Below, piece by piece: positions 8,298 through 34,175 of a stretch of DNA of 34,175 bases. The notes beneath the pieces were generated by a model. The model was given only the letters and a program-made list of their open reading frames with translations. It was not told the origin of the DNA and ran no database searches. The DNA comes from Kangiellaceae bacterium (GTDB taxonomy: Bacteria; Pseudomonadota; Gammaproteobacteria; Enterobacterales; Kangiellaceae). Within the stretch, counting starts at the first letter, position 1, and the number at the start of each line of letters is the position of its first letter. The position numbers and the translations under genes were made by a program. Location: the NCBI GenBank assembly GCA_030590405.1, contig JAUUYO010000001.1, positions 1 to 34,175 of the forward strand, in the 5' to 3' direction.

Positions 8298-9276
8298 TTT
8301 CATGCCTCTGCATTTAACTCAGAATTACGCTATACTACTTATGTAAGTAGCCATAAAAAGGGTTAAATGTATGAAAGTAGCAGAAATAAGCTTTTTTGAT
8401 TGGAAAGATCGCTTTAACGATGAAGAGTCCTGTCGCCGTTATTTAAAAGAATTGAAATGGCAAAATGGGTTTATTTGTCCTCGTTGTGGTCATGATCATT
8501 CCCACTATATTACGACTCGTCAACTCTATCAGTGCAGTGGTTGCCAACACGAAACTTCGGTCACTGCTGGAACCCTTTTCCACCGAAGTCATTTATCTTT
8601 ACAAAAGTGGTTTTGGGCGGTGTATTTTGTTGGCTCAGATAAAGGAAGTATCTCTGCCGTCCGGCTGAGTAAATTGATCGATGTACATTGGCGTACCGCT
8701 CGACTCGTGTTAAAAAAGCTCCGTAAAGCCATGGGAAACAAGGATAGTCTATACACTTTACATGGTATTGTTGAGGTTGATGATGCGCTTGTGGGCGGTA
8801 AACGTAGCGGTAAAAGAGGTCGTGGCGCAGAAGGTAAAACACCCATCATCATCGCTTGCGAAAGCAATGATAAAAGTGCGGGGTTTATTGCGATGAAAGC
8901 AGTTGAAAGCATCAATCATAAAACAGTCAAAAGCTTTATTGAAAAAAACATATCGAAAGATCAAATTGTCCATAGCGATGCATTATCCGCTCTTAATATT
9001 ATTAGTGAAATTCAACAGCATGAAGCAAGAGTTACGCCTGCAAATAAAGTGGATGGTTGGTTACCTTGGGTGCATATTGCCATAGGCAACTTAAAAACAT
9101 TTTTGTTGGGTACTTTTCATGGTGTTTCTGGAAAATACTTGCAAGAATACCTGGATGAATTCTGTTATCGCTTTAATCGACGGTTTTTTGAAAAAGAAAT
9201 TCCTAACCGTTTGTTAAACTTGGCGATTATTCATTCACCCTTACAATCGTTATGAGTTAAATGCAGAGGCATGAAA
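8298..9276 (+). mobile_element. IS1595-family (ISXO2-like) insertion sequence, 979 bp, apparently intact
   Basis: Perfect terminal inverted repeats. 8298-8320 TTTCATGCCTCTGCATTTAACTC is the exact reverse complement of 9254-9276 (24 bp if 8321/9253 are included). They enclose a single transposase ORF. I found no direct target-site duplication at either candidate boundary. Confidence 0.85.
8371..9255 (+). CDS. IS1595-family transposase (294 aa)
   Basis: N-terminal transposase zinc ribbon (CPRCGHDHSHY...CSGCQHETSVTAGTLFHRS). The ISXO2-like DDE region follows (VEVDDALVGG..., HSDALSA..., GVSGKYLQEYLDEFCYRFNRR). The stop codon lies inside the right IR. Confidence 0.9.
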   Translation: MKVAEISFFDWKDRFNDEESCRRYLKELKWQNGFICPRCGHDHSHYITTRQLYQCSGCQHETSVTAGTLFHRSHLSLQKWFWAVYFVGSDKGSISAVRLSKLIDVHWRTARLVLKKLRKAMGNKDSLYTLHGIVEVDDALVGGKRSGKRGRGAEGKTPIIIACESNDKSAGFIAMKAVESINHKTVKSFIEKNISKDQIVHSDALSALNIISEIQQHEARVTPANKVDGWLPWVHIAIGNLKTFLLGTFHGVSGKYLQEYLDEFCYRFNRRFFEKEIPNRLLNLAIIHSPLQSL

Positions 9277-9621
9277 GCGAATGTAAAAGCATTGATAGAG
9301 TTTATTGCTTATGGTATGCGCTATGTCTTCCCTGCTAAGCCAGCAGAGATAACCAGAGGCATTACAACTTCCATTGCTGCGCCAGTGCTTCAAGGGCAAC
9401 TAATGACTTCTGGCGACTTACCACCGATTTGGCCAGACGCAAAAGGTAATACCAAAGGCGTAGCCATAGAACCACTCCACAAAAATATCAGGTTAGCGGT
9501 AAATAATGACGCCGTGTTATATGCCATGTTAGCCCTTACCGACGCTATTCGTATTGGACAGCCAAGAGAGCGAAATTTGGCATTAGATAAACTCAACCTG
9601 TTAATTAAGGAATTACAATGA
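9271..9621 (+). CDS. Hypothetical protein (116 aa), upstream partner of the nucleotidyltransferase; possibly N-terminally truncated
   Basis: ORF ends 25 nt before the NTase gene. Its ATG (9271-9273) lies inside the right IR of the IS, so the start codon is supplied by the element. No family recognised and no HTH visible. Confidence 0.45.
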   Translation: MKANVKALIEFIAYGMRYVFPAKPAEITRGITTSIAAPVLQGQLMTSGDLPPIWPDAKGNTKGVAIEPLHKNIRLAVNNDAVLYAMLALTDAIRIGQPRERNLALDKLNLLIKELQ

Positions 9622-9646: not shown

Positions 9647-10342
9647 ATGATGAATAACATTAATTTGCAACGTCAGATGGTTGAAACTGTCGCTCGTGCT
9701 CTTGGCGATGACTTGTTAGAACAGGTAGTCTTTGTTGGCGGTTGCACAACCGGTTTGTTAGTGACGGATGACTTTACCAAGGAGCAGATCCGCTATACCG
9801 AAGATGTCGACCTGATAGTTCATGTGATTGGCAAAGGTGAATGGTATCAACTGCAACAGAAATTGAGAGACAAGGGATTTAGTGAGGATATGGAGTCTTC
9901 TAACAATGTGATCTGCAGAATGTTGTTAGACGAATTGAAGGTAGACTTTATGCCTGATGACCCAGAGATTTTGAGCTTTAGTAATCGCTGGTATCCCAGA
10001 GTACTGGAAACGGCAAATCTATATCAAATTACCGATGAGCTAACAATTAGATTGATAAGACCCGAATATTTCATCACTACAAAAATTGAGGCATATAAAA
10101 ATTATGGAAATAATGATGTCCTGTCTAGTCACGATATAGAAGACTTGCTTAACCTATTTGATGGACGCGTTGAACTTGTCGATGAAATTAAGGCGGCTAA
10201 TAAAGAAGTACAAATATTTATTAGTGAAGAGCTGGCGAAGTTAGTTTCAGATGATAACTTTGAATATGCAGTGCAGAGCTCCTCAAATAGTGACACAGAT
10301 AGAGAAAATTTAATATTCGAACGATTAGAGTTGTGTATTTAG
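9647..10342 (+). CDS. Pol-beta-superfamily nucleotidyltransferase, AbiEii/MNT-like (231 aa)
   Basis: Minimal NTase signature hGG-x(n)-DhDh: VFVGGCTTGLLVTDD...RYTEDVDLIVHV. Size and two-gene arrangement resemble AbiE-type toxin-antitoxin modules. The family assignment is from motif memory only. Confidence 0.6.
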   Translation: MMNNINLQRQMVETVARALGDDLLEQVVFVGGCTTGLLVTDDFTKEQIRYTEDVDLIVHVIGKGEWYQLQQKLRDKGFSEDMESSNNVICRMLLDELKVDFMPDDPEILSFSNRWYPRVLETANLYQITDELTIRLIRPEYFITTKIEAYKNYGNNDVLSSHDIEDLLNLFDGRVELVDEIKAANKEVQIFISEELAKLVSDDNFEYAVQSSSNSDTDRENLIFERLELCI

Positions 10343-20728: not shown

Positions 20729-21673
20729 ATGGAAAATTCAGAGCTTATTTTTGAACTCAATAAATTGGTATCAGAAGAGCAAAACCCAGACACTTTGGAT
20801 ATTGATCTTTTAGATACCCTGGATGTGGTTAAAAAATTAAATCATCAAGATGATTTAGTCGCTAAAGCCGTGAGTCAAATATTACCCGAGATAGCTGAAG
20901 CGGTTGATCTTATTGTTAACTGTTTTAAACAGGACGGTCGGCTTATTTATCTTGGCGCTGGAACCAGCGGTCGGTTGGGTGTTTTAGACGCGGTTGAATG
21001 TGTACCGACTTTTGGTGTTACCGCAGATAAGGTTATTGGATTGATCGCTGGTGGTGAATCGGCGATGTTTAAAGCGGTTGAAGGCAGTGAAGACGATAAA
21101 TTATCAGCGGTTAAAGCGCTTAAGGCGATTAATTTTTCTGAAAAAGATGTGTTAGTCGGGATCGCGGCTAGTGGTAGAACACCCTATGTTCTTAGCGGAT
21201 TAGAGTACGCAAGTACGCTGGGGGCCGCCAGTATTTCACTTAGTTGCAATCCAAAGTCTGAAATATCAAAGTATGCTGATATTTCTTTAATCGTCATGGT
21301 AGGACCTGAAGCGCTTACCGGGTCGACTCGAATGAAGTCGGGAACTGGCCAAAAGATGGTACTTAATATCTTATCAACAGCGGCGATGATCCGTTGTGGT
21401 AAAAGTTATAAAAATCTAATGATTGACGTAAAGGCGACTAATCAAAAGCTGTATGCAAGAGCGACCAGAATGGTGATGCAAATTACCGGCGTTAATCAGA
21501 CATTAGCAGAGAAAACCCTTGAATTAGCAGATAGGCAGGTTAAGCTTGCGGTATTAATGTTACTGGCGGAGATCGACTGTGGCACCGCAAAGGAATTGCT
21601 TAAACGTGCCGATGGATTTTTGAGAAGGGCATTGCAAATAAATAACGATACAGATCTGTCATCAATCGATTAA
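20729..21673 (+). CDS. murQ: N-acetylmuramic acid 6-phosphate etherase
   Basis: SIS-domain protein with the MurQ-typical N-terminus ([16 protein letters not shown]), [22 protein letters not shown] and [17 protein letters not shown] motifs. Confidence 0.9.
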
Positions 21674-21698
21674 AAAAATAAAATAACAGGAATCAAAA

Positions 21699-23117
21699 AT
21701 GGAATGGCTTAAAATATTACCGCCTCTGGTTGCGGTTGTAATTGTGCTTTGGAAAAAAGAAGTTATTCTCGCGCTCATAATGTCTATTTTTGTATCCGAA
21801 TGGTTGCTGTTAACTGCGCAGTCTTTTATGGGGCCAGTGACAGGTGGCATAAATACTCTGGAACGGGTCACTGCCGTATTTGCAGATGCCGGTAATACTC
21901 GTATTTTGATTTTTAGCATGATGGTGGGCGCTTTGCTTGCTTACATGCGAAAGTCCGGCGGTGTGACCGGGCTGGTCAAAGCCTTGATCTCTAAAGGGTT
22001 GGCAAAATCGCCCAGGCAGGTTTCATTAATGGCGAGCATCACCGGCGTGGTGGTTTTTGTTGAATCTAATTTGAGTGTTTTGACCGCAGGCATTCTATCC
22101 AGAGGATTGTTTGATAAATTTGGTTTAAGTCGCGCTAAGTTGGCTTACATCATTGATAGTACTTCCGCACCGATTTGTATTTTGATTTTGCTCAATGCAT
22201 GGGGCGCTTATGTATTAGCGTTGCTTAGTAGTTATGAGCTTGAGGCTAGCTCTGCAGAAATTTTATGGGGTTCAGTCCCTTTTAATTTTTATGCCTTGAT
22301 TACTTTGGCAATTGTCTTTTACTCTGCCTTTTCGGGTAATTATTACGGACCACTCGCCAATAGTTCGGTACATATTCGCGATGCTGAAGAGGATGGGGAC
22401 AAGCAAAATGAGTCCCAGACTAGCCAGACAGGTTCTACGCTCGATGAGGGTGAGGTCGGACACGCCAGTTTTATGCTGATCCCTATTTTAGTCATGGTGG
22501 GCGGAATGGTTGGATTTATGTTCTGGACAGGCGATGGCGTTCTATCTGCGGGTAGTGGATCGAAATCTGTTTTTTACGCAACCAGCCTGGCGTGCCTGGT
22601 GGCCTATTTTATGATGTTGGCAAGTGGTCGATTTAAACACCAGCAATTGGTCAAGATTGGTTTTACCGGTATGTCGGAACTTTTGCCATTAGTTGCTATT
22701 GTGCTGTTATCGCTTGCTTTGGGAGCCAGCCTTAAAGAACTGGGAACTGGTATTTATATCTCTCAAATCGTGGGTAATTTTTTGCCGATTTATCTGGTCG
22801 CACCGATGATTTTTATTGTTGGCGGAGTGATGTCTTTTTCAACCGGAACTTCCTGGGGAACATTTGCAATTTTAATTCCTATTGGGGTTCCGATCATTCA
22901 AACCATGGGGCTGCCGCCATCACTTATTATTGGAGCGATCCTGGGCGGCGGTGTGTTTGGTGATCACTGTTCGCCGATATCGGATACAACCGCCGTTTCA
23001 GCAATAGCTTCTGGTTGTGATTTACTTGAACATGTCAAAACACAATTGCCTTATGCGTTAGTTGCTGGCGGCGCATCAGTTATTTTATATCTGGTTGTTG
23101 GGTTAGTGATATTATAG
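21699..23117 (+). CDS. NhaC-family Na+/H+ antiporter-type transporter (472 aa)
   Basis: Polytopic membrane protein. The N-terminal LPPLVAVVIVLWKKEV and C-terminal GGGVFGDHCSPISDTT motifs are typical of the NhaC (Na_H_antiporter) family. Substrate unknown. Confidence 0.7.
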   Translation: MEWLKILPPLVAVVIVLWKKEVILALIMSIFVSEWLLLTAQSFMGPVTGGINTLERVTAVFADAGNTRILIFSMMVGALLAYMRKSGGVTGLVKALISKGLAKSPRQVSLMASITGVVVFVESNLSVLTAGILSRGLFDKFGLSRAKLAYIIDSTSAPICILILLNAWGAYVLALLSSYELEASSAEILWGSVPFNFYALITLAIVFYSAFSGNYYGPLANSSVHIRDAEEDGDKQNESQTSQTGSTLDEGEVGHASFMLIPILVMVGGMVGFMFWTGDGVLSAGSGSKSVFYATSLACLVAYFMMLASGRFKHQQLVKIGFTGMSELLPLVAIVLLSLALGASLKELGTGIYISQIVGNFLPIYLVAPMIFIVGGVMSFSTGTSWGTFAILIPIGVPIIQTMGLPPSLIIGAILGGGVFGDHCSPISDTTAVSAIASGCDLLEHVKTQLPYALVAGGASVILYLVVGLVIL

Positions 23118-23196
23118 GGTTACCCTGAATTCAAGTATTATTGATTTAGGGTTGTTATCGATTAGGCCGAAGCGTTATTTTTTCAGAAATTAAAAT

Positions 23197-24288
23197 ATGT
23201 CAAGAAACACACAAGCGATTATCAGTTTAGACAATATCCGTTCCAATTTTTTATTGGCGAATCAATGGGCGCCACAATCAAAAAATATGGCAGTTATTAA
23301 AGCGGATGCCTATGGGCATGGTTTGCTAGCTGTGGCAGAGGCTTTGCAGTCTTTAGTGCCCGCTTTTGCGGTGGCGATATTTGATGAAGCGGTGGCATTA
23401 AGGAACGGTGGCATTACAAAAAATATTCTTATTCTGCAAGGGGTTAACTGCGCTACCGAACTAACTTATGCCAGTGAAAATGATTGTTGGATAACACTTC
23501 ACAACAAACAACAAATTGATTTATTGTTGGCCACGAAATTAAAACAACCGCTTAAAGTGTGGTTAAAATTAGATACCGGAATGCACCGACTCGGTCTCGA
23601 TCAAAAGCAATTTGATAAAAGCTTACAACTTATAAAACAATGTCGTTGGATTGCAGATGACTTTGTTGTTTCATCCCATTTTTCTTGTGCCAGTGAATTA
23701 GCCAATGGCGAGTCTAAAAAGCAATTCAACAAATTCAATGAAATGATTACTGAGGCCAAATTGCCATCAAACATTGAATTAAGTCTGTCTAATTCACCTG
23801 CCATCGCACACTTACCGGAATCTAACTTGAACTGGAATCGGCCAGGGATCATGCTTTATGGTTTGCCGTTATTTGACGGGCCTCATAGTAGTGACCAACA
23901 ACTTAAAGCGGCTATGAGTTTTGAATCAGAAGTTGTGGCTATTCGAGAAGTGGAAACGGGCGAGTATGTTGGTTACTCTAATAAATGGCAAGCGACACGG
24001 CCCTCAAAAATAGCGACAGTTTCTGTTGGGTATGCTGACGGTTATCCGCGTCAGGCGAAAAATGGAACGCCGGTATTGGTTAAGGGAGAAAGAGCCAGCT
24101 TGGCCGGGGTGGTGTCAATGGATTTGATTGGTGTCGATGTGACAGACCTGTCAAATGTTTCAATCGGCGATCCAGTTGAGCTTTGGGGGGAACATTTATC
24201 TGCCAATGAAGTAGCAAGTTACGCCAACACTATCGGTTATGATTTAATATCAGGTGTTAGTCGACGAGTGCCTCGTGTTTATAAATAA
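23197..24288 (+). CDS. alr: Alanine racemase (363 aa)
   Basis: PLP-lysine motif AVIKADAYGHG, the VSVGYADGYPR segment, and the C-terminal IGYDLISGVSRRVPRVY. Confidence 0.92.
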   Translation: MSRNTQAIISLDNIRSNFLLANQWAPQSKNMAVIKADAYGHGLLAVAEALQSLVPAFAVAIFDEAVALRNGGITKNILILQGVNCATELTYASENDCWITLHNKQQIDLLLATKLKQPLKVWLKLDTGMHRLGLDQKQFDKSLQLIKQCRWIADDFVVSSHFSCASELANGESKKQFNKFNEMITEAKLPSNIELSLSNSPAIAHLPESNLNWNRPGIMLYGLPLFDGPHSSDQQLKAAMSFESEVVAIREVETGEYVGYSNKWQATRPSKIATVSVGYADGYPRQAKNGTPVLVKGERASLAGVVSMDLIGVDVTDLSNVSIGDPVELWGEHLSANEVASYANTIGYDLISGVSRRVPRVYK

Positions 24289-24345: not shown

Positions 24346-25461
24346 CTACTCAATTGCCACAAAATCGTCAAAATGTTCGATTTTGACTTTATGGTTGGCC
24401 GCTAATTGACCGACTCTATCGAGCGTTTGGATATGCGCAATATTATCCATTTGCCAAAGGTCTTTCGGCTGGACATCGGTTACGCCAATTGCTTGCAGGC
24501 CTTTTTGAGTGAGGTTAGTGTTGTAACGCATATAAGTGAATAGTTTTTCGGCTGTGGGGCCTTTAGTATTAATTAAATCGCCAATTTCCATATCGATCTC
24601 ATCACCACACAAACACTTTCCAAATGACCGGCAAAGAAGATCTTGCTCAACACTTGCTGCAGACATAAGCGCCTGGGGAGTTTGGGTAGCGGTGTAGCCC
24701 AAATGCATATCTTTTGTTGTTATCTCCTTTTTAACTTCTGGTACGTTACCGGTCCCGACCGACACCAGTAACATCTTGTTTTCCCCCGTTGGCCATTGCA
24801 ATTTATAAGGTTCAAGGGTGGCCATTAAAAAAGTCTGAAAAGAGGGGTTGTTGTAGGGGGTGACGCCGCCATCGACAAACAGAAACTTAGTATCGCCAAG
24901 AGTAATGCTTTCTGGCTCAAAAAAGGTAGGTGCTGCGGTACTCGCTCGGACCAGCTGCCAAAGGGGCAGGTTAAGATTACAGTCAGGTAAATTTTTGTCA
25001 TTAAATAGTGCGTTGGGATTATTACTCATCAACCAGGGTGAGCCGGTGGAGGCGTTTCGCATCACTATCATTAACAAGGTTTTGATGGTATTGCTGCCCA
25101 AAGTCTCTGATCTGCCAAACGTATCTTTTAATATTCGAGTGATGGCTTCTGATTGGTATTTAAAATAAAGACGCTTTGAAATGGAGGCTTTTTTGAATAT
25201 CTCCTGACTGCATTCCAGATAAAAGGGACGAATTTCTGCGGTACTCATGCCGGTCGCCAGTGCTGTCGCAAGAATAGCGCCGGTACTTGTGCCTGAAATA
25301 TAGTCAAAGTAATCAGACAGTAATAAATCGGGGTTAGCTGTTGCCTGGCGTAACTGTTGTTCGATTTGCTCTAACATGCCCAGCGCTAACAGGCCTCGGA
25401 TACCGCCGCCATCAATCGTGAGTATTTTTTTCTGTTGCTTGTTTTGCTGTTTAGAAGTCAT
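24346..25461 (-). CDS. Patatin-like phospholipase (371 aa), catalytic motifs intact
   Basis: Oxyanion-hole motif DGGGIRG, nucleophile elbow GTSTG (GxSxG) and catalytic Asp in FVDGGV. GGAG SD about 8 nt upstream of the ATG. Divergent from the TIR operon. Confidence 0.88.
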   Translation of the reverse strand: MTSKQQNKQQKKILTIDGGGIRGLLALGMLEQIEQQLRQATANPDLLLSDYFDYISGTSTGAILATALATGMSTAEIRPFYLECSQEIFKKASISKRLYFKYQSEAITRILKDTFGRSETLGSNTIKTLLMIVMRNASTGSPWLMSNNPNALFNDKNLPDCNLNLPLWQLVRASTAAPTFFEPESITLGDTKFLFVDGGVTPYNNPSFQTFLMATLEPYKLQWPTGENKMLLVSVGTGNVPEVKKEITTKDMHLGYTATQTPQALMSAASVEQDLLCRSFGKCLCGDEIDMEIGDLINTKGPTAEKLFTYMRYNTNLTQKGLQAIGVTDVQPKDLWQMDNIAHIQTLDRVGQLAANHKVKIEHFDDFVAIE

Positions 25462-25785: not shown

Positions 25786-27438
25786 ATGATAAATGGCCAG
25801 CTGTTTTCCACCCAGTTCAAACAAAGACTTATGCTCGTTATCTGCTGTATTCTGTTGAGCGCCTGTAGTGGTCATCAAATCAGGCAAGATAAGCTACTAA
25901 AAGCCCATCAGACATTCTATGATGATTATGAACCCAATTTGCAAAAATTTAACCGTGAGATCAATCAGTCATTAACCTTACGCAAGCGTTCAGTGAGTTT
26001 TTACACTCAGGAAATGCTGGAAAGTAAGGCTCAATATTTTGATGCCAAAGATATCGCACAAATTCAATCAACGGTTTCAGAGTATAAACGTAACCGCGAT
26101 GTGCTGCTCAATGATATTGCTTTTCGATACCGCAAACTGATTGAAGATGTTGAGTTGAGGTTTGGTCTAACCGAGCCATCGGGATTGGTGAATTATCCGT
26201 CATTCTTTGCCATTGGTGGAAAAAACATACTGCATGTTAACCCCATGGATAAAAAAGGCAGGCAGTACATCAATGTCTTCAAGTTGGGGTTAGCTGCAAC
26301 TTTGACTTTATACGACAACTTTATCATTGCGATTATGCCGTATCAGGAAAATGGCCATTTCCGGCGAAAAATCAATTACGACAATATTGATAATCAAAAA
26401 ATTATCGAAGATATTTCAGGCAACTTCCGTCGATTAGATAATTATAAAGATACCCTGCGAGTGGTTGAATTTAATGATAACGTCAGAAAATGGGAAAAAC
26501 AAAACATCACCCATGCGATGATTTTAGATAAAGATAACGATTATTTTAATGTCCTCATCGATGGAAGTTATACCAATAAACGGATTAAAGATATTTCCTT
26601 ACTTGATCGGTTGGCCTTCCGCACGGTCAGGTTTAGACGTATTTTGCGAGACACCATGTTTGATTTTGGTAATGAGAGCATGAATTTCGTCAGTAAAATA
26701 TTTGGTAATAGCATGGGACTGATTTCTTCAAGAGAAGGCTATCTTAAAAATATTCCCCGCAGTCATAAAGACAAAATTGAAAGTGAATTAATGCCAGGGG
26801 ATATCTTGCTGGAAAAGACTCCCTTTCGTTTGACTGATCGATTTATCCCAGGCCACTGGGGGCATGTGGCGATTTGGACCGGTTCAGAAAAACAGTTAAA
26901 AGAGCTTGGTATTTGGAATGAGTTGCCCGCTCTCTACAAAAAAGCCCAAACAAGACTAGGTTATCAAGGCCCTTCCTTTCAGCAGCAGATTCGCTCGGGG
27001 CATAAAATTATCGAAGCGCTTCGACCCGGCGTACAGATCAATAGTTTAGAGCATTTTTTAGACATTGATGATATGGCGGTTTTACGTGATAAAAAGGTTA
27101 AGCAAGCGGCAATGAAACGGTATTTAACCAGAGCTTTTGAACAGGTTGGCAAGGAGTACGATTTTAATTTTGATGTTGAAACCGATAAAAAAATTGTTTG
27201 CTCCGAGTTGGCATTTGTTGCTTATGACGATTACCAATGGCCAGTGGCTAAAACCGCAGGTCGTTATACGATTTCCCCCGATCATGTCGGTGAAAAAGCT
27301 AATGGTGAAGGGCCTTTTGAACCGGTAATGTTGTATCATGATGGAAAAATAATAGAGAGTAATATTCAAATTAATTTTAACCATTTGATGAAGGCTGAGT
27401 ATCAACAAGTGTCAGCCGATCTTGTGCCTATTCTATAA
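25786..27438 (+). CDS. Lipoprotein with C-terminal permuted papain-fold (YiiX/YaeF, NlpC/P60-superfamily) domain
   Basis: From the ATG at 25786 (AAGGA about 8 nt upstream) the N-terminus is MINGQLFSTQFKQRLMLVICCILLSAC/SG, i.e. a basic n-region, a hydrophobic core and the lipobox L-S-A-C. The C-terminal third has the His-then-Cys permuted order (GDILLEK...IPGHWGHVAIWTG ... IIEALRPGV ... KIVCSELAFVAYDD). About 300 residues in between are unassigned. The track's TTG at 25768 is less likely. Confidence 0.72.
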   Translation: MINGQLFSTQFKQRLMLVICCILLSACSGHQIRQDKLLKAHQTFYDDYEPNLQKFNREINQSLTLRKRSVSFYTQEMLESKAQYFDAKDIAQIQSTVSEYKRNRDVLLNDIAFRYRKLIEDVELRFGLTEPSGLVNYPSFFAIGGKNILHVNPMDKKGRQYINVFKLGLAATLTLYDNFIIAIMPYQENGHFRRKINYDNIDNQKIIEDISGNFRRLDNYKDTLRVVEFNDNVRKWEKQNITHAMILDKDNDYFNVLIDGSYTNKRIKDISLLDRLAFRTVRFRRILRDTMFDFGNESMNFVSKIFGNSMGLISSREGYLKNIPRSHKDKIESELMPGDILLEKTPFRLTDRFIPGHWGHVAIWTGSEKQLKELGIWNELPALYKKAQTRLGYQGPSFQQQIRSGHKIIEALRPGVQINSLEHFLDIDDMAVLRDKKVKQAAMKRYLTRAFEQVGKEYDFNFDVETDKKIVCSELAFVAYDDYQWPVAKTAGRYTISPDHVGEKANGEGPFEPVMLYHDGKIIESNIQINFNHLMKAEYQQVSADLVPIL

Positions 27439-29910: not shown

Positions 29911-32900
29911 ATGACTGATAGTCAAAAATATAAATACAAAGCATTCATCAGTTACAGTCATCAGGACAGTAAGTGGGGCGATTGGCTACATAAAGCGCTA
30001 GAGTCTTACACCGTCCCGAAAACAATTCGTGGAAAGCCCAATCGAGACGGCAAAGTCCCTGATAAGTTATTTCCTGTGTTTAGAGACCGGGAAGAGCTTC
30101 CTACCGCCACTGATTTAGGGGCGGTGATCTCAAACGCCATACAAAGCTCTGCTTATCTAATTGTTATTTGCTCGCCTCGCTCGGCAAAGTCGATGTGGGT
30201 GAATCAGGAGATCATCAACTTTAAAGCTCTGGGCCGAGAAAATCGGGTGCTGGCAATTATTGTCGATGGTGAGCCGAACGGTGCTGACAAACCGGGAATG
30301 GAAGATATTGAATGTTTTCCTGAGGCATTAAAGTTTATAGTGGGTGATGACGGAAAGCAGACTAGCGAAAGAACCGAGCCCATCGCAGCTGATGCACGCG
30401 AGGGAAAAGACGGTAAGAAAAACGCACTGATTAAGTTACTTTCTGGCCTGCTTGGGGTTAATTATGATGATTTAAAGCAACGTGAAAAAACACGTCAGCG
30501 TCATCGCCGAATGACTTATTTTGTCGCGGCGACTTTATTTGCCGCCGTTGGGATTGGTTATTGGCAGTACGCACAAAAAATTGAGAACCAGCGGTTAATT
30601 GAGGAAAGCCAATCACTCGCCATTCAATCACAAGAAGCTCTAAAACAAGGTGATAGTAAAAGGGCGATATCTCTAGCGCTTAAAGCATTGCCTGAGGATC
30701 TGGACGATGCTGACAGACCTTGGGTAGAGTCAGCCGAAAATGCCCTGTCAAGGGCGATGTATCAACACAAGGAGCAATATTCGTTTAAGGCTCATCAAGG
30801 CAAAGCCACTCATGTGATATCCAGTCCAGATGGTCGTTATTTATTCACTGCTGGTGACGATAGAAAAATAAAAAAGTGGAATGTAAGCCGTCAACAACTG
30901 ATTGAGCAATTTGACAATCATCATGCGCCGTTACTGATTCTCTCCCATCATCCAATATTGCCAATACTGCTTAGCTGGGATGTTGATAGCCATGTGATTA
31001 TTCGCGACTTGGACAGCCATCAAGTTTTGGCAAAATTTGATCACTATGGTACCGATTATAATAAAAATGTTCGTTGGAGCGATGATGGCCAATTGGTTTT
31101 TATTAATCAAACGGCATGGAGCCTGAAAAATAAAACGGAAGTTTCATTAGATTTTTCTAGCACAGCGAGCCAATATGAAAATACCGTTTATCTTCCCATA
31201 CAAGGAGCGACTGACACGGCGATTGTTGATAGCGGCAATATTACCCTGGTTGATTTGGAAAACCGTAAAGAAATTGGCCATTTATCAATCGCTGAATCAG
31301 TTGATAAGCATCCTGGTGATATTGCCTTGATAGCATTGATCGATCAGAAAAAATATTATTTAGCCATCTATCAGGGGGGTGGTGCTTATTTATTTGATGC
31401 TAAAACCTATCAGTTGATCAAAAAATTATCCCACAAGATTGCAATTTTACTCGATTCGGATTGGGAAGATGGTAAGTTACTCCATTTTACCGATTATGAA
31501 TTTCGTCTTTGGGATCCTCAAACGGGTGTCGATCGGCTTTTGCACCCGGAAGCAGAAAGGATCATCATCAGCAAAGGCGTTAGTCTGGTTCAGGGGCGTG
31601 AACATCTCGCCATGATCAAATACAGTGATAAAATTCAGTTATTTGATTTAAAATTGGGACAAGTGACCAAAACTTTTACTAGTGGAAAAAAGCAGGATAG
31701 TTCCTCTTCCATTTATAACCAGATTGAACTGATCCAGGCGGCGAGTTTTAATCCTGACAATGGATTGTTAAATATAGCACTTATTGATGGTCGTATTCGT
31801 GCTTTTTTATTGGCAGATTTAGATAAAAGCTTATCGATTAATTTAAACTCGCCGATCAAAGAACTGATCCATTCTAAAGATCAGCGATTTTATGCCGCCT
31901 ATCTGACCAGCGGTGAGCTAAAACTGATTGATATAGAAAACAAAAAAATATTATCGGTTGCCGAAAATATCTCTTTAAGTGCTTTTACTTTTGCCAATGG
32001 TGGGAATCATCTGGCAATAATATCGGACAATCGAGTGAGCCTTTATGATACCAGTCAGCTGGTTGACTCTACAAAGCCAGTTACTCCGAAAGTCATGTTG
32101 CCCTTTGCGATAGAGGTGTCGCTGAAAGCTAAAATTATTCTTTCAAAAAGTGGTCAAAAAATAGGCTTAGTCAGTAATTATGATCAGCTAGCGATCTATG
32201 ACTTTAAACTCAAACAGTGGTTATCAATGCCAACCAGTAGCGGCTTGCAGGCTATTAATGCTGTGGCTGATCGTTGGCTGGTTAATTCGACGGATTTAAA
32301 ATTAACCAGGTTGGATAATGAGCTTATTCAACAGCATGAATCAGTCCTGCAAGATAAGCAGCTTTATCCTTTTTATCCTGATATTTATAAGTTTGATCAA
32401 ACAATGAATCATTCAATCTGGCTGGACAAAAACGGTCAGGTCGAATATCGAAATTTGAAAAAAAATAAATTGATAGCCAGTGTTGCTTTGGGACTAGGCA
32501 ATTCTTTATTCACCGATCTGAGTGCTAACGGTGAACTGGCACTTATAGGTAATTATCAGGAAATTTTACTGGTCAAAGAAAATGCAGTTAACAGCTCTGT
32601 TAGATTCACTCCCCGATTTAGCGATAACACTTCTTTTTTGTTTGCATCTCTTAATCCGCAAGGGAGCCAATTGACACTGGTAGAAAGTCTGTACAATAAC
32701 GGAGACAATCAACAAATCGTTATTTATCAACTGGATCTGTTTGATGAAAAAAAACCGACGATAGTATGGCAGTCTAAAATACTTGATGGACAGTTTACTG
32801 TTTTGCATCACACAAGTGAGGCGATAGTTTTAAAAAGCGATAAAAAACTGGTACTTTTCAATCGGGCAGAGAGAAGTATAAAACAAGCATCTAAACAGTT

Positions 32901-34175
32901 AGAAAATCTGATTTCTTCGATTGTTCAAGTAGGTCCCAAGGGCAGGCAATATGTGATTTATAAAGATGGTTTCTTATCGTTATATAAATTTAATTCCAAC
33001 CAACCCGTTTGGCGAAAAGAAATATATTCGCAGAACATTCTGTTCTTTAATCAAGATGGTCGCTATTTAACTAATGTGGTTAATCACTCTAATGGCGGAA
33101 AAATTGAGATATTAAATAGTCAAACCGGCGATGCCATCGCTACAAATCAGTTACACACAGGGATCGTTTATGGTTTTGATAGCAACGACAAAATCATTTC
33201 CTGGCAACAAAATATAGCGTTATGCTTGTGGGACTGGCAATCAAATCCTTCGATTGATTATGGTGACCGTTTTGATAAAAAAGCAGAATGCAAACAACAT
33301 TATAATAACAACGGGCAGGTGTTTTCAGTTGGCGATCAGCACTTGGTGATTAACGCTATCAGCCAACATCAATATATTGATCAAGACAAAAGTGAAAAGC
33401 TTGGAAAACTAAGTTGCGATACATCTTTCCTTGTTTACCCTTTAAAAACGAATAGCGAATCGGCGACTTGTATTAAACAGACCGATGGTTTTCAATTTTT
33501 TGACATAAACAAGGGCAGAGTCCATTGGCCATTTTTAAGTGAAGATAAAGTGGTTAGTTTTATCCAAAGCCAAAATGGTCGATATTTACTTAGTCTGGAT
33601 AAAACGGGCACTATTCATTTTGTTGATATTAAAAATCCAGTTCAACCGGGTCAGGCAGGCACAATACTCAATAGCAAAAATATTGCTCGATATCAGATTG
33701 ATGACTCCGGACAATATATGTCTTTAATTAAAAAGGACTGGTTGATTGAACTTTGGGATTTAAAGAACAAAAAGAAGCTGCATAGTACACAACTACCAAG
33801 AAATGAACTAAATTATTTAGGGCCGATGGAACTACTTATCAGTGAAACACAGCAATCTGTATTGATGTTTCAAAGTGGCGATATTTATGTATGGAACCCT
33901 GGTAACAAAATTTCCAACTTCAAAGTGGGGCCGATCAGAGCTGGTTCACCAGTAAGAATCAATTTAGACAACAAACGACTGGTGCAAGTTAATTACGATG
34001 GAATTCATTTATGGGATTGGTTTACCGGAAAAAAACTGATCACCCATCCACTACAAGGATATGCTAAAGGGGCCGATACAATTGATTTTCACCCATCACT
34101 TCATTTGTTTTCGATAACCGCCGATGAGCTAACCTTTTTCAATTTTGATGATGGCGCTCAATCTCACATGATAGC
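29911..34175 (+). CDS. TIR domain - single TM helix - WD40/beta-propeller repeat protein, more than 1421 aa, 3' end beyond the window
   Basis: Not in the ORF track because it has no stop in the window. I translated frame 1 from the ATG at 29911 and saw no stop through 34173. Sequence: MTDSQKYKYKAFISYSHQDSKWGDWLHKAL...FPVFRDREELP...YLIVICSPRSAKSMWVNQEI (candidate catalytic Glu100)...IIVDGEPNG...EPIAADAR...LLSGLLGVNYDDLKQREKTRQRHRR. A TM helix follows (MTYFVAATLFAAVGIGYW, about aa 201-218). Then comes one canonical WD40 unit (AHQGKATHVISSPDGRYLFTAGDDRKIKKWNV) and more than 1000 aa of degenerate beta-propeller-like repeats (e.g. SQNGRYLLSLDKTGTIHFVDIKN; LIELWDLKN; GIHLWDWFTGK). Starts 37 nt after the TIR-TPR gene. 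The first in-frame ATG follows a TAA at 29890-29892. Confidence 0.85.
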   Translation, partial: MTDSQKYKYKAFISYSHQDSKWGDWLHKALESYTVPKTIRGKPNRDGKVPDKLFPVFRDREELPTATDLGAVISNAIQSSAYLIVICSPRSAKSMWVNQEIINFKALGRENRVLAIIVDGEPNGADKPGMEDIECFPEALKFIVGDDGKQTSERTEPIAADAREGKDGKKNALIKLLSGLLGVNYDDLKQREKTRQRHRRMTYFVAATLFAAVGIGYWQYAQKIENQRLIEESQSLAIQSQEALKQGDSKRAISLALKALPEDLDDADRPWVESAENALSRAMYQHKEQYSFKAHQGKATHVISSPDGRYLFTAGDDRKIKKWNVSRQQLIEQFDNHHAPLLILSHHPILPILLSWDVDSHVIIRDLDSHQVLAKFDHYGTDYNKNVRWSDDGQLVFINQTAWSLKNKTEVSLDFSSTASQYENTVYLPIQGATDTAIVDSGNITLVDLENRKEIGHLSIAESVDKHPGDIALIALIDQKKYYLAIYQGGGAYLFDAKTYQLIKKLSHKIAILLDSDWEDGKLLHFTDYEFRLWDPQTGVDRLLHPEAERIIISKGVSLVQGREHLAMIKYSDKIQLFDLKLGQVTKTFTSGKKQDSSSSIYNQIELIQAASFNPDNGLLNIALIDGRIRAFLLADLDKSLSINLNSPIKELIHSKDQRFYAAYLTSGELKLIDIENKKILSVAENISLSAFTFANGGNHLAIISDNRVSLYDTSQLVDSTKPVTPKVMLPFAIEVSLKAKIILSKSGQKIGLVSNYDQLAIYDFKLKQWLSMPTSSGLQAINAVADRWLVNSTDLKLTRLDNELIQQHESVLQDKQLYPFYPDIYKFDQTMNHSIWLDKNGQVEYRNLKKNKLIASVALGLGNSLFTDLSANGELALIGNYQEILLVKENAVNSSVRFTPRFSDNTSFLFASLNPQGSQLTLVESLYNNGDNQQIVIYQLDLFDEKKPTIVWQSKILDGQFTVLHHTSEAIVLKSDKKLVLFNRAERSIKQASKQLENLISSIVQVGPKGRQYVIYKDGFLSLYKFNSNQPVWRKEIYSQNILFFNQDGRYLTNVVNHSNGGKIEILNSQTGDAIATNQLHTGIVYGFDSNDKIISWQQNIALCLWDWQSNPSIDYGDRFDKKAECKQHYNNNGQVFSVGDQHLVINAISQHQYIDQDKSEKLGKLSCDTSFLVYPLKTNSESATCIKQTDGFQFFDINKGRVHWPFLSEDKVVSFIQSQNGRYLLSLDKTGTIHFVDIKNPVQPGQAGTILNSKNIARYQIDDSGQYMSLIKKDWLIELWDLKNKKKLHSTQLPRNELNYLGPMELLISETQQSVLMFQSGDIYVWNPGNKISNFKVGPIRAGSPVRINLDNKRLVQVNYDGIHLWDWFTGKKLITHPLQGYAKGADTIDFHPSLHLFSITADELTFFNFDDGAQSHMI

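Follow-up and report, generated by a model that had tools for sequence, protein, structure and literature searches.

A truncated giant gene at a Kangiellaceae contig end encodes a predicted TIR-transmembrane-multi-propeller protein, a rare form within an abundant bacterial family

The characterised TIR defence systems of bacteria (Thoeris, TIR-STING, SPARTA, TIR-SAVED and E. coli TIR-I to TIR-IX) sense intracellular events, and the characterised TIR NADases (those of SARM1, plant TNLs, AbTir, TIR-STING and SPARTA) need an oligomeric arrangement. Sensors with extracytoplasmic propellers are known from other signalling proteins, namely M. tuberculosis PknD, a kinase joined through a transmembrane (TM) helix to an NHL propeller, and the Bacteroides hybrid two-component systems with periplasmic tandem propellers. 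For the single-chain TIR+TPR protein TIR-II of E. coli, antiphage activity has been shown experimentally, and a 2024 survey noted that bacterial TIR systems seemed to lack features of Toll-like receptors (TLRs), transmembrane domains among them (PMC11350192). Here we analysed a stretch of 34,175 bp from a Kangiellaceae bacterium (assembly GCA_030590405.1, contig JAUUYO010000001.1; hereafter the window), at the 3' end of which a giant gene encodes an N-terminal TIR domain, a predicted single TM helix and a long array of degenerate beta-propeller blades. The literature searched describes TIR-NBD (nucleotide-binding domain)-WD40/TPR and soluble TIR-TPR proteins and holds no description of a bacterial TIR-TM-repeat architecture; the TIR-TM-multi-propeller arrangement appears to be undescribed there. 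The features of the giant gene are as follows.

29911..34175, + strand: partial coding sequence of the TIR-TM-multi-beta-propeller protein (1421 codons; 3' end beyond the contig; likely full length ~1750 aa)
29935..30453, + strand: TIR domain, residues 9-181, betaA to alphaE (Pfam TIR_2, E 1.7e-12; AlphaFold2 predicted local distance difference test, pLDDT, 91; Foldseek matches all TIR)
30196..30210, + strand: WxxxE motif W96-V-N-Q-E100 with the putative catalytic glutamate on helix alphaC (homologue conservation, Roq1 alignment)
30481..30564, + strand: basic juxtamembrane stretch (residues 191-200, REKTRQRHRR) and predicted single TM helix (residues 201-218) (family hydrophobicity, charge asymmetry, predicted helix 185-245)
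30565..30780, + strand: predicted helical stalk, residues 219-290, from the membrane to the first propeller (AlphaFold2 models)
30772..30882, + strand: sole canonical WD40 repeat, residues 288-324 (PF00400, 32.2 bits against a cutoff of 27)
30805..34175, + strand: ~24.75 predicted degenerate four-stranded blades, residues 299-1421 (AlphaFold2 pLDDT 75, 99 strands; tandem-propeller fold matches)
32011..33420, + strand: putative clade-specific orphan part of the ectodomain, approximately residues 701-1170 (profile search of 1.84 billion representatives; coverage profile)
33223..33471, + strand: ectodomain cysteine cluster C1105, C1127, C1169 and C1187, candidate disulfides (invariant in all five long-form proteins)

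Like TIR-II (PMC11350192) and the two-gene BcTir/Tpr system (bioRxiv 10.1101/2023.05.26.542521), the giant protein combines an N-terminal TIR domain bearing the putative catalytic Glu with a C-terminal, superstructure-forming repeat sensor. As in these systems no partner is obligatory, and the paralogue encoded upstream in the window is itself a TIR + TPR protein. Both known systems are described as soluble, whereas here a conserved, predicted TM helix separates the TIR domain from the repeats. The giant protein would also carry ~32 degenerate blades instead of TPRs and is two to three times larger, TIR-II being compared by its description only.

The open frame was examined over its full extent. 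Positions 29911 to 34175 of the forward strand translate into 1421 codons without a stop, as the initial annotation of this DNA had claimed for a single continuous frame running to the window end, and the remaining five frames contain 77-158 stops over the same span. GC content differs between the three codon positions (49%, 33% and 36%). The start ATG at 29911 agrees with the N-termini of homologues: MTDSQKYKYKAFISYSH in the window, MSDSPFKYKAFISYSH in P0001 and MSPQQYKYKAFISYSH in P0002. Local BLAST alignments to four full-length homologues, P0001 (1759 aa, 47% identity), P0002 (1777 aa, 47%), P0003 (1715 aa, 33%) and P0004 from Shewanella sp. SP1S2-4 (1691 aa, 32%), were colinear and free of frameshifts, residues 1-1415 pairing with residues 1-1425 of P0001. 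As far as the window reaches, the gene is therefore intact but truncated and not a pseudogene; neither an overlooked in-frame stop nor a disabling frameshift, the two errors for which the initial annotation had allowed, was seen. The window is the entire contig, so the 3' end of the gene lies beyond the assembly. Judged from the colinear homologues of 1691-1777 aa, the full protein is probably ~1750 aa long, with ~334 residues missing and the first ~80% encoded in the window, which agrees with the earlier view that it is incomplete here. The stop codon would be expected about 1.0 kb past position 34175, close to a conserved PLxPxGQxLIDxA tail. It had also been pointed out that the gene is missing from the open reading frame (ORF) track. 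Only 32566-32811 (-) and 33539-33727 (+) are indeed listed across this span, but the gap is an artefact of the ORF lister, which omits frames that run off an end. Restoring a 5-kb gene to the track is a useful correction even if the receptor inference below fails; the interest of the gene comes from reading its family as transmembrane receptors and not from this artefact.

We defined the family by its common N-terminal module, consisting of a TIR domain, an EPIAAD..R linker, a basic stretch and a single TM segment, which is followed by a repeat array. The identity of the TIR domain, already proposed from the translation, was borne out by domain search and by structure prediction. Pfam TIR_2 (PF13676) matches residues 12-121 with 48.3 bits (cutoff 28) and is overlapped by a ThsB_TIR match (34.4 bits). 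AlphaFold2, given an alignment of 30 sequences, modelled residues 1-290 with a pLDDT of 91.2 and a predicted template modelling score (pTM) of 0.71. In this model the TIR core runs from betaA (residues 9-14) to alphaE (168-181) and is followed by one continuous helix of 61 residues (185-245). Its significant Foldseek matches in the PDB are TIR domains only (TMt up to 0.70), those of SPARTA TIR-APAZ, TLR1, TLR15, RPP1, SARM1, AbTir, ThsB, RUN1 and MyD88 among them. Of 121 family members, 120 keep the W-x-x-x-E motif; E100 does not vary in either of two independent alignments (30/30 and 53/53 sequences), and W96-V-N-Q-E100 aligns with WCLEEL of Roq1. The glutamate of this motif on alphaC is what we take to be the catalytic residue of TIR NADases, as known from SARM1, plant TIRs and AbTir. 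Because motif and glutamate are essentially invariant, an enzymatic use of the domain is favoured, and the TIR of the giant protein is probably catalytic, a putative NADase. It shares the fold and the position of the glutamate with SARM1, AbTir, ThsB and SPARTA TIR-APAZ at 13-19% identity, and a similar requirement for self-association would be expected; unlike the giant protein, none of these spans a membrane with an ectodomain.

The segment that follows the TIR domain (residues 201-218, MTYFVAATLFAAVGIGYW) is moderately hydrophobic in the window protein, with a Kyte-Doolittle value of 1.56 over 17 residues, just under our initial 19-residue threshold of 1.6. The initial annotation's assignment of a TM segment here gains from the family as a whole: a hydrophobic segment near residue 200 scores above 1.5 in 97.5% of 121 members (median 2.3), no second such segment was found in any of these 121 sequences, and 97% of an independent metagenome sample carry the TM segment. 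Across the family the 12 residues before the segment contain on average 6.2 Lys+Arg (net charge +5.0), compared with 2.0 (net +0.4) after it. From this positive-inside pattern and the N-terminal position of a TIR domain without a signal peptide we infer an N-in/C-out orientation, and we consider it likely that the TIR domain is cytoplasmic and that the repeats lie outside the inner membrane. The distribution of cysteines was also analysed. Cys makes up only 0.19-0.44% of family ectodomains, compared with 1.4-1.5% of the TIR part. In each of the five long forms the ectodomain (~1200-1550 residues) contains just four cysteines, which are invariant at 22-47% identity. This depletion, together with the four invariant residues, is consistent with an oxidising compartment, and the four would suit two structural disulfides. 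They lie within 83 residues of one another (1105-1187; window 33223-33471), and AlphaFold2 confidence is low in the loops around the cluster (model residues 893-912 and 934-937), pointing to an insertion stapled by disulfides. Even cysteine counts were in excess in a WD40-rich set (73:45, p = 0.006); as an indicator of export this test is weak and serves as support only.

Beyond the membrane segment, an AlphaFold2 model of residues 225-1421 (mean pLDDT 75; pTM 0.39, a value to be expected of domains strung like beads) consists of a ~65-residue helical stalk and 99 short strands. These correspond to 24.75 four-stranded blades at 45.3 residues per blade, or ~3.5 propellers' worth within the window, and thereby supply the count of blades by structure prediction that had been proposed earlier. 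Extrapolated from strand and blade counts, and not from a reading of ring closure, the full-length protein would have about 32 blades in 4-5 propellers; the earlier statement of two or more propellers was right in that there are several and too low in their number. The remainder of the protein is all-beta, and its best PDB fold matches (E ~1e-21) are tandem or multi-propeller WD40 proteins, including the Utp21/Pwp2 tandem WD proteins, 2ymu (a cyanobacterial 'highly repetitive propeller'), Apaf-1, the three-propeller Trm734 and the ROS1 ectodomain, so that the beta-propeller assignment stands. The same is true of the remark that only the first repeat is a textbook WD40 unit, since PF00400 matches the one stretch of residues 288-324 and the xW[D/N/Q/E] signature is kept in only 7 of ~25 predicted blades. 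No tandem repeats at the DNA level were found in the giant gene, and by this measure the degenerate blades are ancient and did not arise by recent amplification. Recent amplification or shuffling of repeats, as in WD40 arrays of high internal conservation, was ruled out on the same grounds.

With these parts in hand, the giant protein can be set beside receptors of other kinds. Like the TLRs and the interleukin-1 receptor (IL-1R), it is predicted to cross the membrane once, with an ectodomain of repeats on the outer side and its TIR domain on the inner side, and the TIR domains of TLR1 and TLR15 are among its best structural matches. Unlike in TLRs, where the TIR domain is C-terminal (type I), it is N-terminal here (type II); the ectodomain is built of beta-propellers or TPRs in place of the leucine-rich repeats (LRRs) or immunoglobulin (Ig) domains of TLR/IL-1R, with no LRR match found; and the enzymatic WxxxE glutamate is kept, making the TIR domain a likely NADase and not an adaptor-recruiting scaffold. 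On comparison of these architectures, the resemblance to TLRs is one of analogy and not of orthology. With the STAND/NLR proteins of the TIR-NTPase-WD40/TPR type (Roq1 and RPP1; nSTAND/Avs-like proteins such as the nSTAND1-WD40 protein of locus L097) the giant protein shares a TIR effector, a variable C-terminal WD40/TPR sensor and, as proposed here, activation by oligomerisation. It differs from them in the lack of any Pfam match to a P-loop NTPase (NB-ARC, NACHT or nSTAND), residues 185-290 being modelled as TM helix plus stalk, and whatever drives oligomerisation would have to act within the membrane plane, in place of an ATP-dependent switch. PknD and the Bacteroides hybrid systems likewise couple an external beta-propeller sensor, through one TM helix, to a catalytic output in the cytoplasm; their output is a kinase or histidine kinase instead of a TIR domain, and the giant array is far longer.

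The giant form is uncommon among its relatives. The N-terminal ~350 residues are common to all of the 120 best of 1952 matches, and within this set residues 750-1421 are covered by only four sequences and eight proteins exceed 1500 aa. An exhaustive profile search of 1.84 billion representatives with residue 701 to the end returned full-length P0003 and two short C-terminal fragments. All other matches are generic WD40 proteins restricted to the last ~550 profile positions; residues ~701-1170 are therefore, by profile comparison, specific to a long-form clade made up of the window protein and its four homologues. A word-indexed search with residues 560-1421 alone gave no matches despite 32-47% identical homologues in the database, and this result does not indicate absence: negatives from such searches are unreliable for divergent repeat regions, because full-length homologues were missed. 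A long-form relative occurs in a single species-representative genome, the Kangiellaceae metagenome-assembled genome (MAG) that carries P0001. The TIR-TM module itself is extremely abundant in soil and sediment metagenomes, where a scan confirmed at least 551 of 600 candidate stretches. Among 57 complete family proteins sampled there, the median length is 743 aa and the maximum 1404 aa, and the initial annotation was correct in calling this sensor unusually large. All 53 scanned metagenome members carry TIR_2 (53/53), with TPR in 34/53 and WD40 in 16/53, and the window holds one TPR and one WD40 form in tandem. The sensor repertoire is wider than these two repeat types, because the module also occurs with ~850-residue ectodomains lacking Pfam matches or with PDZ+TPR (P0006, P0010, P0079, P0097 and P0115, the last being the PDZ+TPR form). 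Annotated members are named just 'TIR domain-containing protein'. On sequence grounds the giant form is thus a rare member of an abundant, uncharacterised TIR-TM-repeat family.

Three neighbouring genes of the window bear on how the locus has evolved.

24346..25461, - strand: CapV-like patatin phospholipase, divergently transcribed (PADLOC and NCBIfam matches; the subfamily recurs near TIR proteins and TPR-S cassettes)
25786..27438, + strand: predicted lipoprotein with a C-terminal permuted papain-like Peptidase_C92 domain (YaeF/YiiX); its counterpart lies directly 5' of the giant gene in locus L006
27459..29873, + strand: TIR-TM-TPR paralogue, 804 aa, TM segment 261-287 (domain match; shares the TIR-linker-TM module; absent in L006)

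Locus L006, which carries P0002, is syntenic with the window in alr, the patatin gene (-), the C92 gene and the giant gene, and the TIR-TPR gene of the window is missing there between the C92 and giant genes. Protein identity between the two loci is 87% for Alr, 88% for the patatin, 79% for C92 and 47% for the giant protein. Within the latter it falls from 91% over residues 1-200 to 66% over residues 201-285 and to 38-40% throughout the ectodomain. Nei-Gojobori non-synonymous divergence (dN) follows the same course, with 0.07 for alr, 0.08 for the patatin gene, 0.14 for C92, 0.06 for the TIR domain, 0.28 for TM segment plus stalk and 0.54-0.58 for the ectodomain; the sensor has diverged about ten times faster than the effector domain. 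P0001, from an unrelated housekeeping context in the Kangiellaceae MAG, shows a matching profile (87%, 68% and ~39%). A conserved effector joined to a hypervariable sensor, with presence and absence of a paralogue, would look like an immune-receptor locus, and relaxed constraint on a tolerant scaffold is a possible cause of the same pattern.

We read the giant gene as encoding a single-pass N-in/C-out receptor in which ligand-driven clustering activates a cytoplasmic TIR NADase, with a probable role in defence, an account that we find about as easy to believe as to doubt. The TIR domain would lie in the cytoplasm, the continuous helix would cross the inner membrane, and the chain of degenerate propellers would reach into the periplasm as a fast-evolving ligand sensor. 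An extracytoplasmic ligand, which may be a phage- or competitor-derived component or a cue of envelope damage, would bind and cluster the ectodomains and so bring the cytoplasmic TIR domains into an active oligomeric arrangement. The activated domains would then cleave NAD+, leading either to its depletion, with growth arrest or abortive infection, or to an ADP-ribose-derived signal. The giant protein would most likely act by itself, since genes of this family usually have no conserved partners; the neighbouring patatin of CapV type and the TIR-TM-TPR paralogue would be optional extras of a variable immune locus. Three things suggest a role in defence, namely the evolutionary pattern, the conflict-type neighbours and the antiphage activity of the soluble E. 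coli TIR-TPR protein. Extended to the whole family, and put forward only tentatively, the TIR-linker-TM module may mark a very large prokaryotic family of TLR-style transmembrane immune receptors, whose fast-evolving repeat ectodomains (TPR, WD40 or giant multi-propeller chains) would survey the periplasm or surface and cluster the enzymatic TIR domains.

A number of observations weigh against this account. The synonymous divergence (dS) between the window and L006 is saturated and yields no dN/dS ratio (omega), and the divergence of the ectodomain could reflect relaxed constraint as well as diversifying selection. No phage record holds the TIR-TM module and it is rare among plasmid records (10/72,556); carriage by phages or plasmids was rejected accordingly. 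In PADLOC-DB v2 the giant protein matches no defence model beyond a weak TIR match (SAVED_TIR, E 3e-4, no qualifying stretch), and no NCBIfam model matches the TIR-TM family. Many family members, including P0017 and the closest homologue P0001, lie among housekeeping genes and not in defence islands. The last two points, together with the sheer abundance of the family in soil and sediment and the position of the gene beside alanine racemase and MurNAc-recycling genes (MurQ-like SIS and NamZ) in three lineages, would suit a non-immune membrane protein, such as an envelope or surface scaffold, a protein of kin or contact recognition or an envelope-stress sensor, in which the TIR domain serves as an interaction or regulatory module and not as a suicide NADase. 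We regard this as improbable, given that the catalytic Glu and the WxxxE motif are essentially invariant, that a conserved effector with hypervariable repeats and paralogue presence/absence is typical of immune receptors, and that the recurrent neighbours (patatin, SLATT, TIR and integrase genes) are of the conflict type. Arrays of canonical WD40 or TPR_10/12 repeats are known above all from STAND proteins of the cytoplasm, the even-cysteine bias is absent in a TPR-rich sample, and the window segment falls under the 19-residue threshold. It could accordingly be argued that the segment does not span the membrane, or has another topology, and that the propellers are cytoplasmic, as in a STAND/NLR-like sensor merely tethered to the membrane. 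Such an arrangement is very unlikely: a single-pass helix cannot keep both flanking domains on one side of the membrane, the family shows a high median hydrophobicity and a strong positive-inside signature on the TIR side, the model runs one continuous helix through the segment, and the cysteine pattern of the ectodomain fits an oxidising compartment.

The receptor account has also to be weighed against a multi-gene system, in which the giant TIR domain would make an NAD+-derived nucleotide that activates the adjacent CapV-like patatin, possibly with a TPR-S/SLATT-like cassette, so that membrane damage kills the cell. The patatin does match effector models (1.5e-48 against the PADLOC phospholipase effector model and 123.7 bits against NCBIfam CBASS_lipase), and it is syntenic with the C92 and giant genes in L006. 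Its subfamily (43-56% identity) adjoins TIR-TM-WD40 genes in four independent lineages (window/L006, L012/13, L055 and L096), and SLATT-type proteins accompany it. Nevertheless, this explanation too is unlikely to hold. In reciprocal sampling of patatin homologues the constant partner is TPR-S (PF20308), present in 4/4 contexts, and TIR proteins of varied architecture occur in 2/4; the patatin gene is divergently transcribed, its product has no recognisable nucleotide-sensor domain, and its score lies below the CBASS_lipase cutoff of 200. Among 80 metagenome loci with TIR-TM genes, patatin occurs once (L055, 46% identity, divergent and adjacent), and none is found near P0001, P0003, P0006 or P0017; it was ruled out as an obligatory partner. 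A decaying or non-functional gene, or an assembly artefact, can hardly be credited. It is true that the contig ends before the gene does, that the repeats have degenerated strongly and that residues ~701-1170 lack relatives outside a tiny clade, yet the long stop-free frame, the difference in GC between codon positions, the colinearity with four intact homologues from different contigs and taxa, dozens of invariant residues including the four Cys, and a confidently folded model all argue for a functional gene.

The remaining features of the locus are described here for completeness. The N-terminal modules of the TIR-TM-TPR paralogue and the giant protein share 34% identity (E = 2e-46). The C92, TIR-TM-TPR and giant genes share a strand, and the gaps between them are 20 and 37 nt. 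An operon is suggested by these gaps only, because a promoter and terminator scan of the window gave counts at or below shuffled expectation, with no terminator-like site in either gap. The C92 lipoprotein has the lipobox LLSAC and a ~330-residue N-terminal region without a Pfam match, and the divergent patatin/C92 pair is kept in L006 and in L094, the latter without a TIR gene. The patatin is like CBASS CapV in its fold, and its best PADLOC and NCBIfam matches are CBASS phospholipase models; it differs in its sub-cutoff score and its conserved partner TPR-S. No CD-NTase cyclase is present in the window, and with the patatin below the CBASS_lipase cutoff the locus does not belong to CBASS. Nor is it a Thoeris locus, there being no ThsA-like gene (SIR2 or Macro/SLOG) among the window ORFs and no PADLOC Ths match. 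Elsewhere the window carries ordinary chromosomal genes (rnfABC, metG, mrp, dcd, an IS1595 transposase, topoisomerase III, GAF-GGDEF-EAL, MurQ-like SIS, nhaC and alr). The IS1595-family transposase gene (8371-9255, +) is followed by two ORFs without Pfam matches (9271-9621 and 9647-10342), which may be cargo or passenger genes. Scans of the window for tRNA genes and Rfam families gave no matches. No reverse transcriptase is found among the window ORFs, and a diversity-generating retroelement was therefore ruled out as the source of the variability within the contig. Alanine racemase and genes of MurNAc/peptidoglycan recycling (MurQ-like SIS etherase, NamZ, and M14 or AmpD-like amidases) adjoin the locus in three lineages, at 20729-24288 in the window, 15491-21672 in L007 and 2227-8310 in L095; this could reflect a mere conserved chromosomal position or a link to the cell wall.

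Across the 80 loci, TPR-S-like genes were counted five times, tandem TIR modules twice, SLATT once and C92 not at all (0/80), and C92 was ruled out as a family-wide partner. SLATT, DUF4062, other TIR proteins and integrases are found near family members. The usual companions of TPR-S are a ~520-aa protein with a C-terminal TM segment and a ~290-aa protein of weak SLATT similarity, the latter fused to TPR-S in L096 and L097. The set of patatin, TPR-S, SLATT-like and ~520-aa proteins looks like an uncharacterised conflict cassette and often lies near TIR proteins; it is absent from PADLOC, and no description of it was found in the literature searched. The patatin subfamily is itself widespread, with 7995 matches at E < 1e-40 and 54-58% identity across phyla. 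The TPR-S cassette is not present in the window. In L006 it lies 6.4 kb beyond the stop of the giant gene, with multihaem cytochromes immediately downstream of that gene, and the suggestion that the system may continue downstream of the contig finds weak support in this arrangement. In L012/L013 (1-11840) an MlaE-like gene is followed by an MlaD-like gene, the end of which overlaps a TIR-TM-WD40 gene (1051 aa) by 4 nt. This TIR-TM-WD40 gene is flanked by a 1353-aa DUF4062 (TIR-like) gene upstream and by patatin and SLATT_1 genes downstream, the whole being a dense cluster of candidate NAD- and membrane-directed effectors. A further island in L097 (5175-17122) combines a TIR-FGE-sulfatase fusion, a CAP12/PCTIR-type TIR protein and one more TIR protein with a patatin, a TPR-S fusion and an nSTAND1-WD40 protein exceeding 1800 aa.

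If the predicted topology and the NADase output hold, proteins of this kind would be extracytoplasmic pattern-recognition receptors with a TIR output, a functional analogue of TLRs assembled from different parts. Bacteria could then sense attack by phages or competitors outside the cytoplasm, before genome entry. The window protein, at ~32 blades, would be the most elaborate known sensor of the TIR-TM family, and with an ectodomain of ~1500 residues the giant form might be long enough to reach across much of the periplasmic space. The family would also lend itself to the study of how TIR enzymes are turned on across a membrane.

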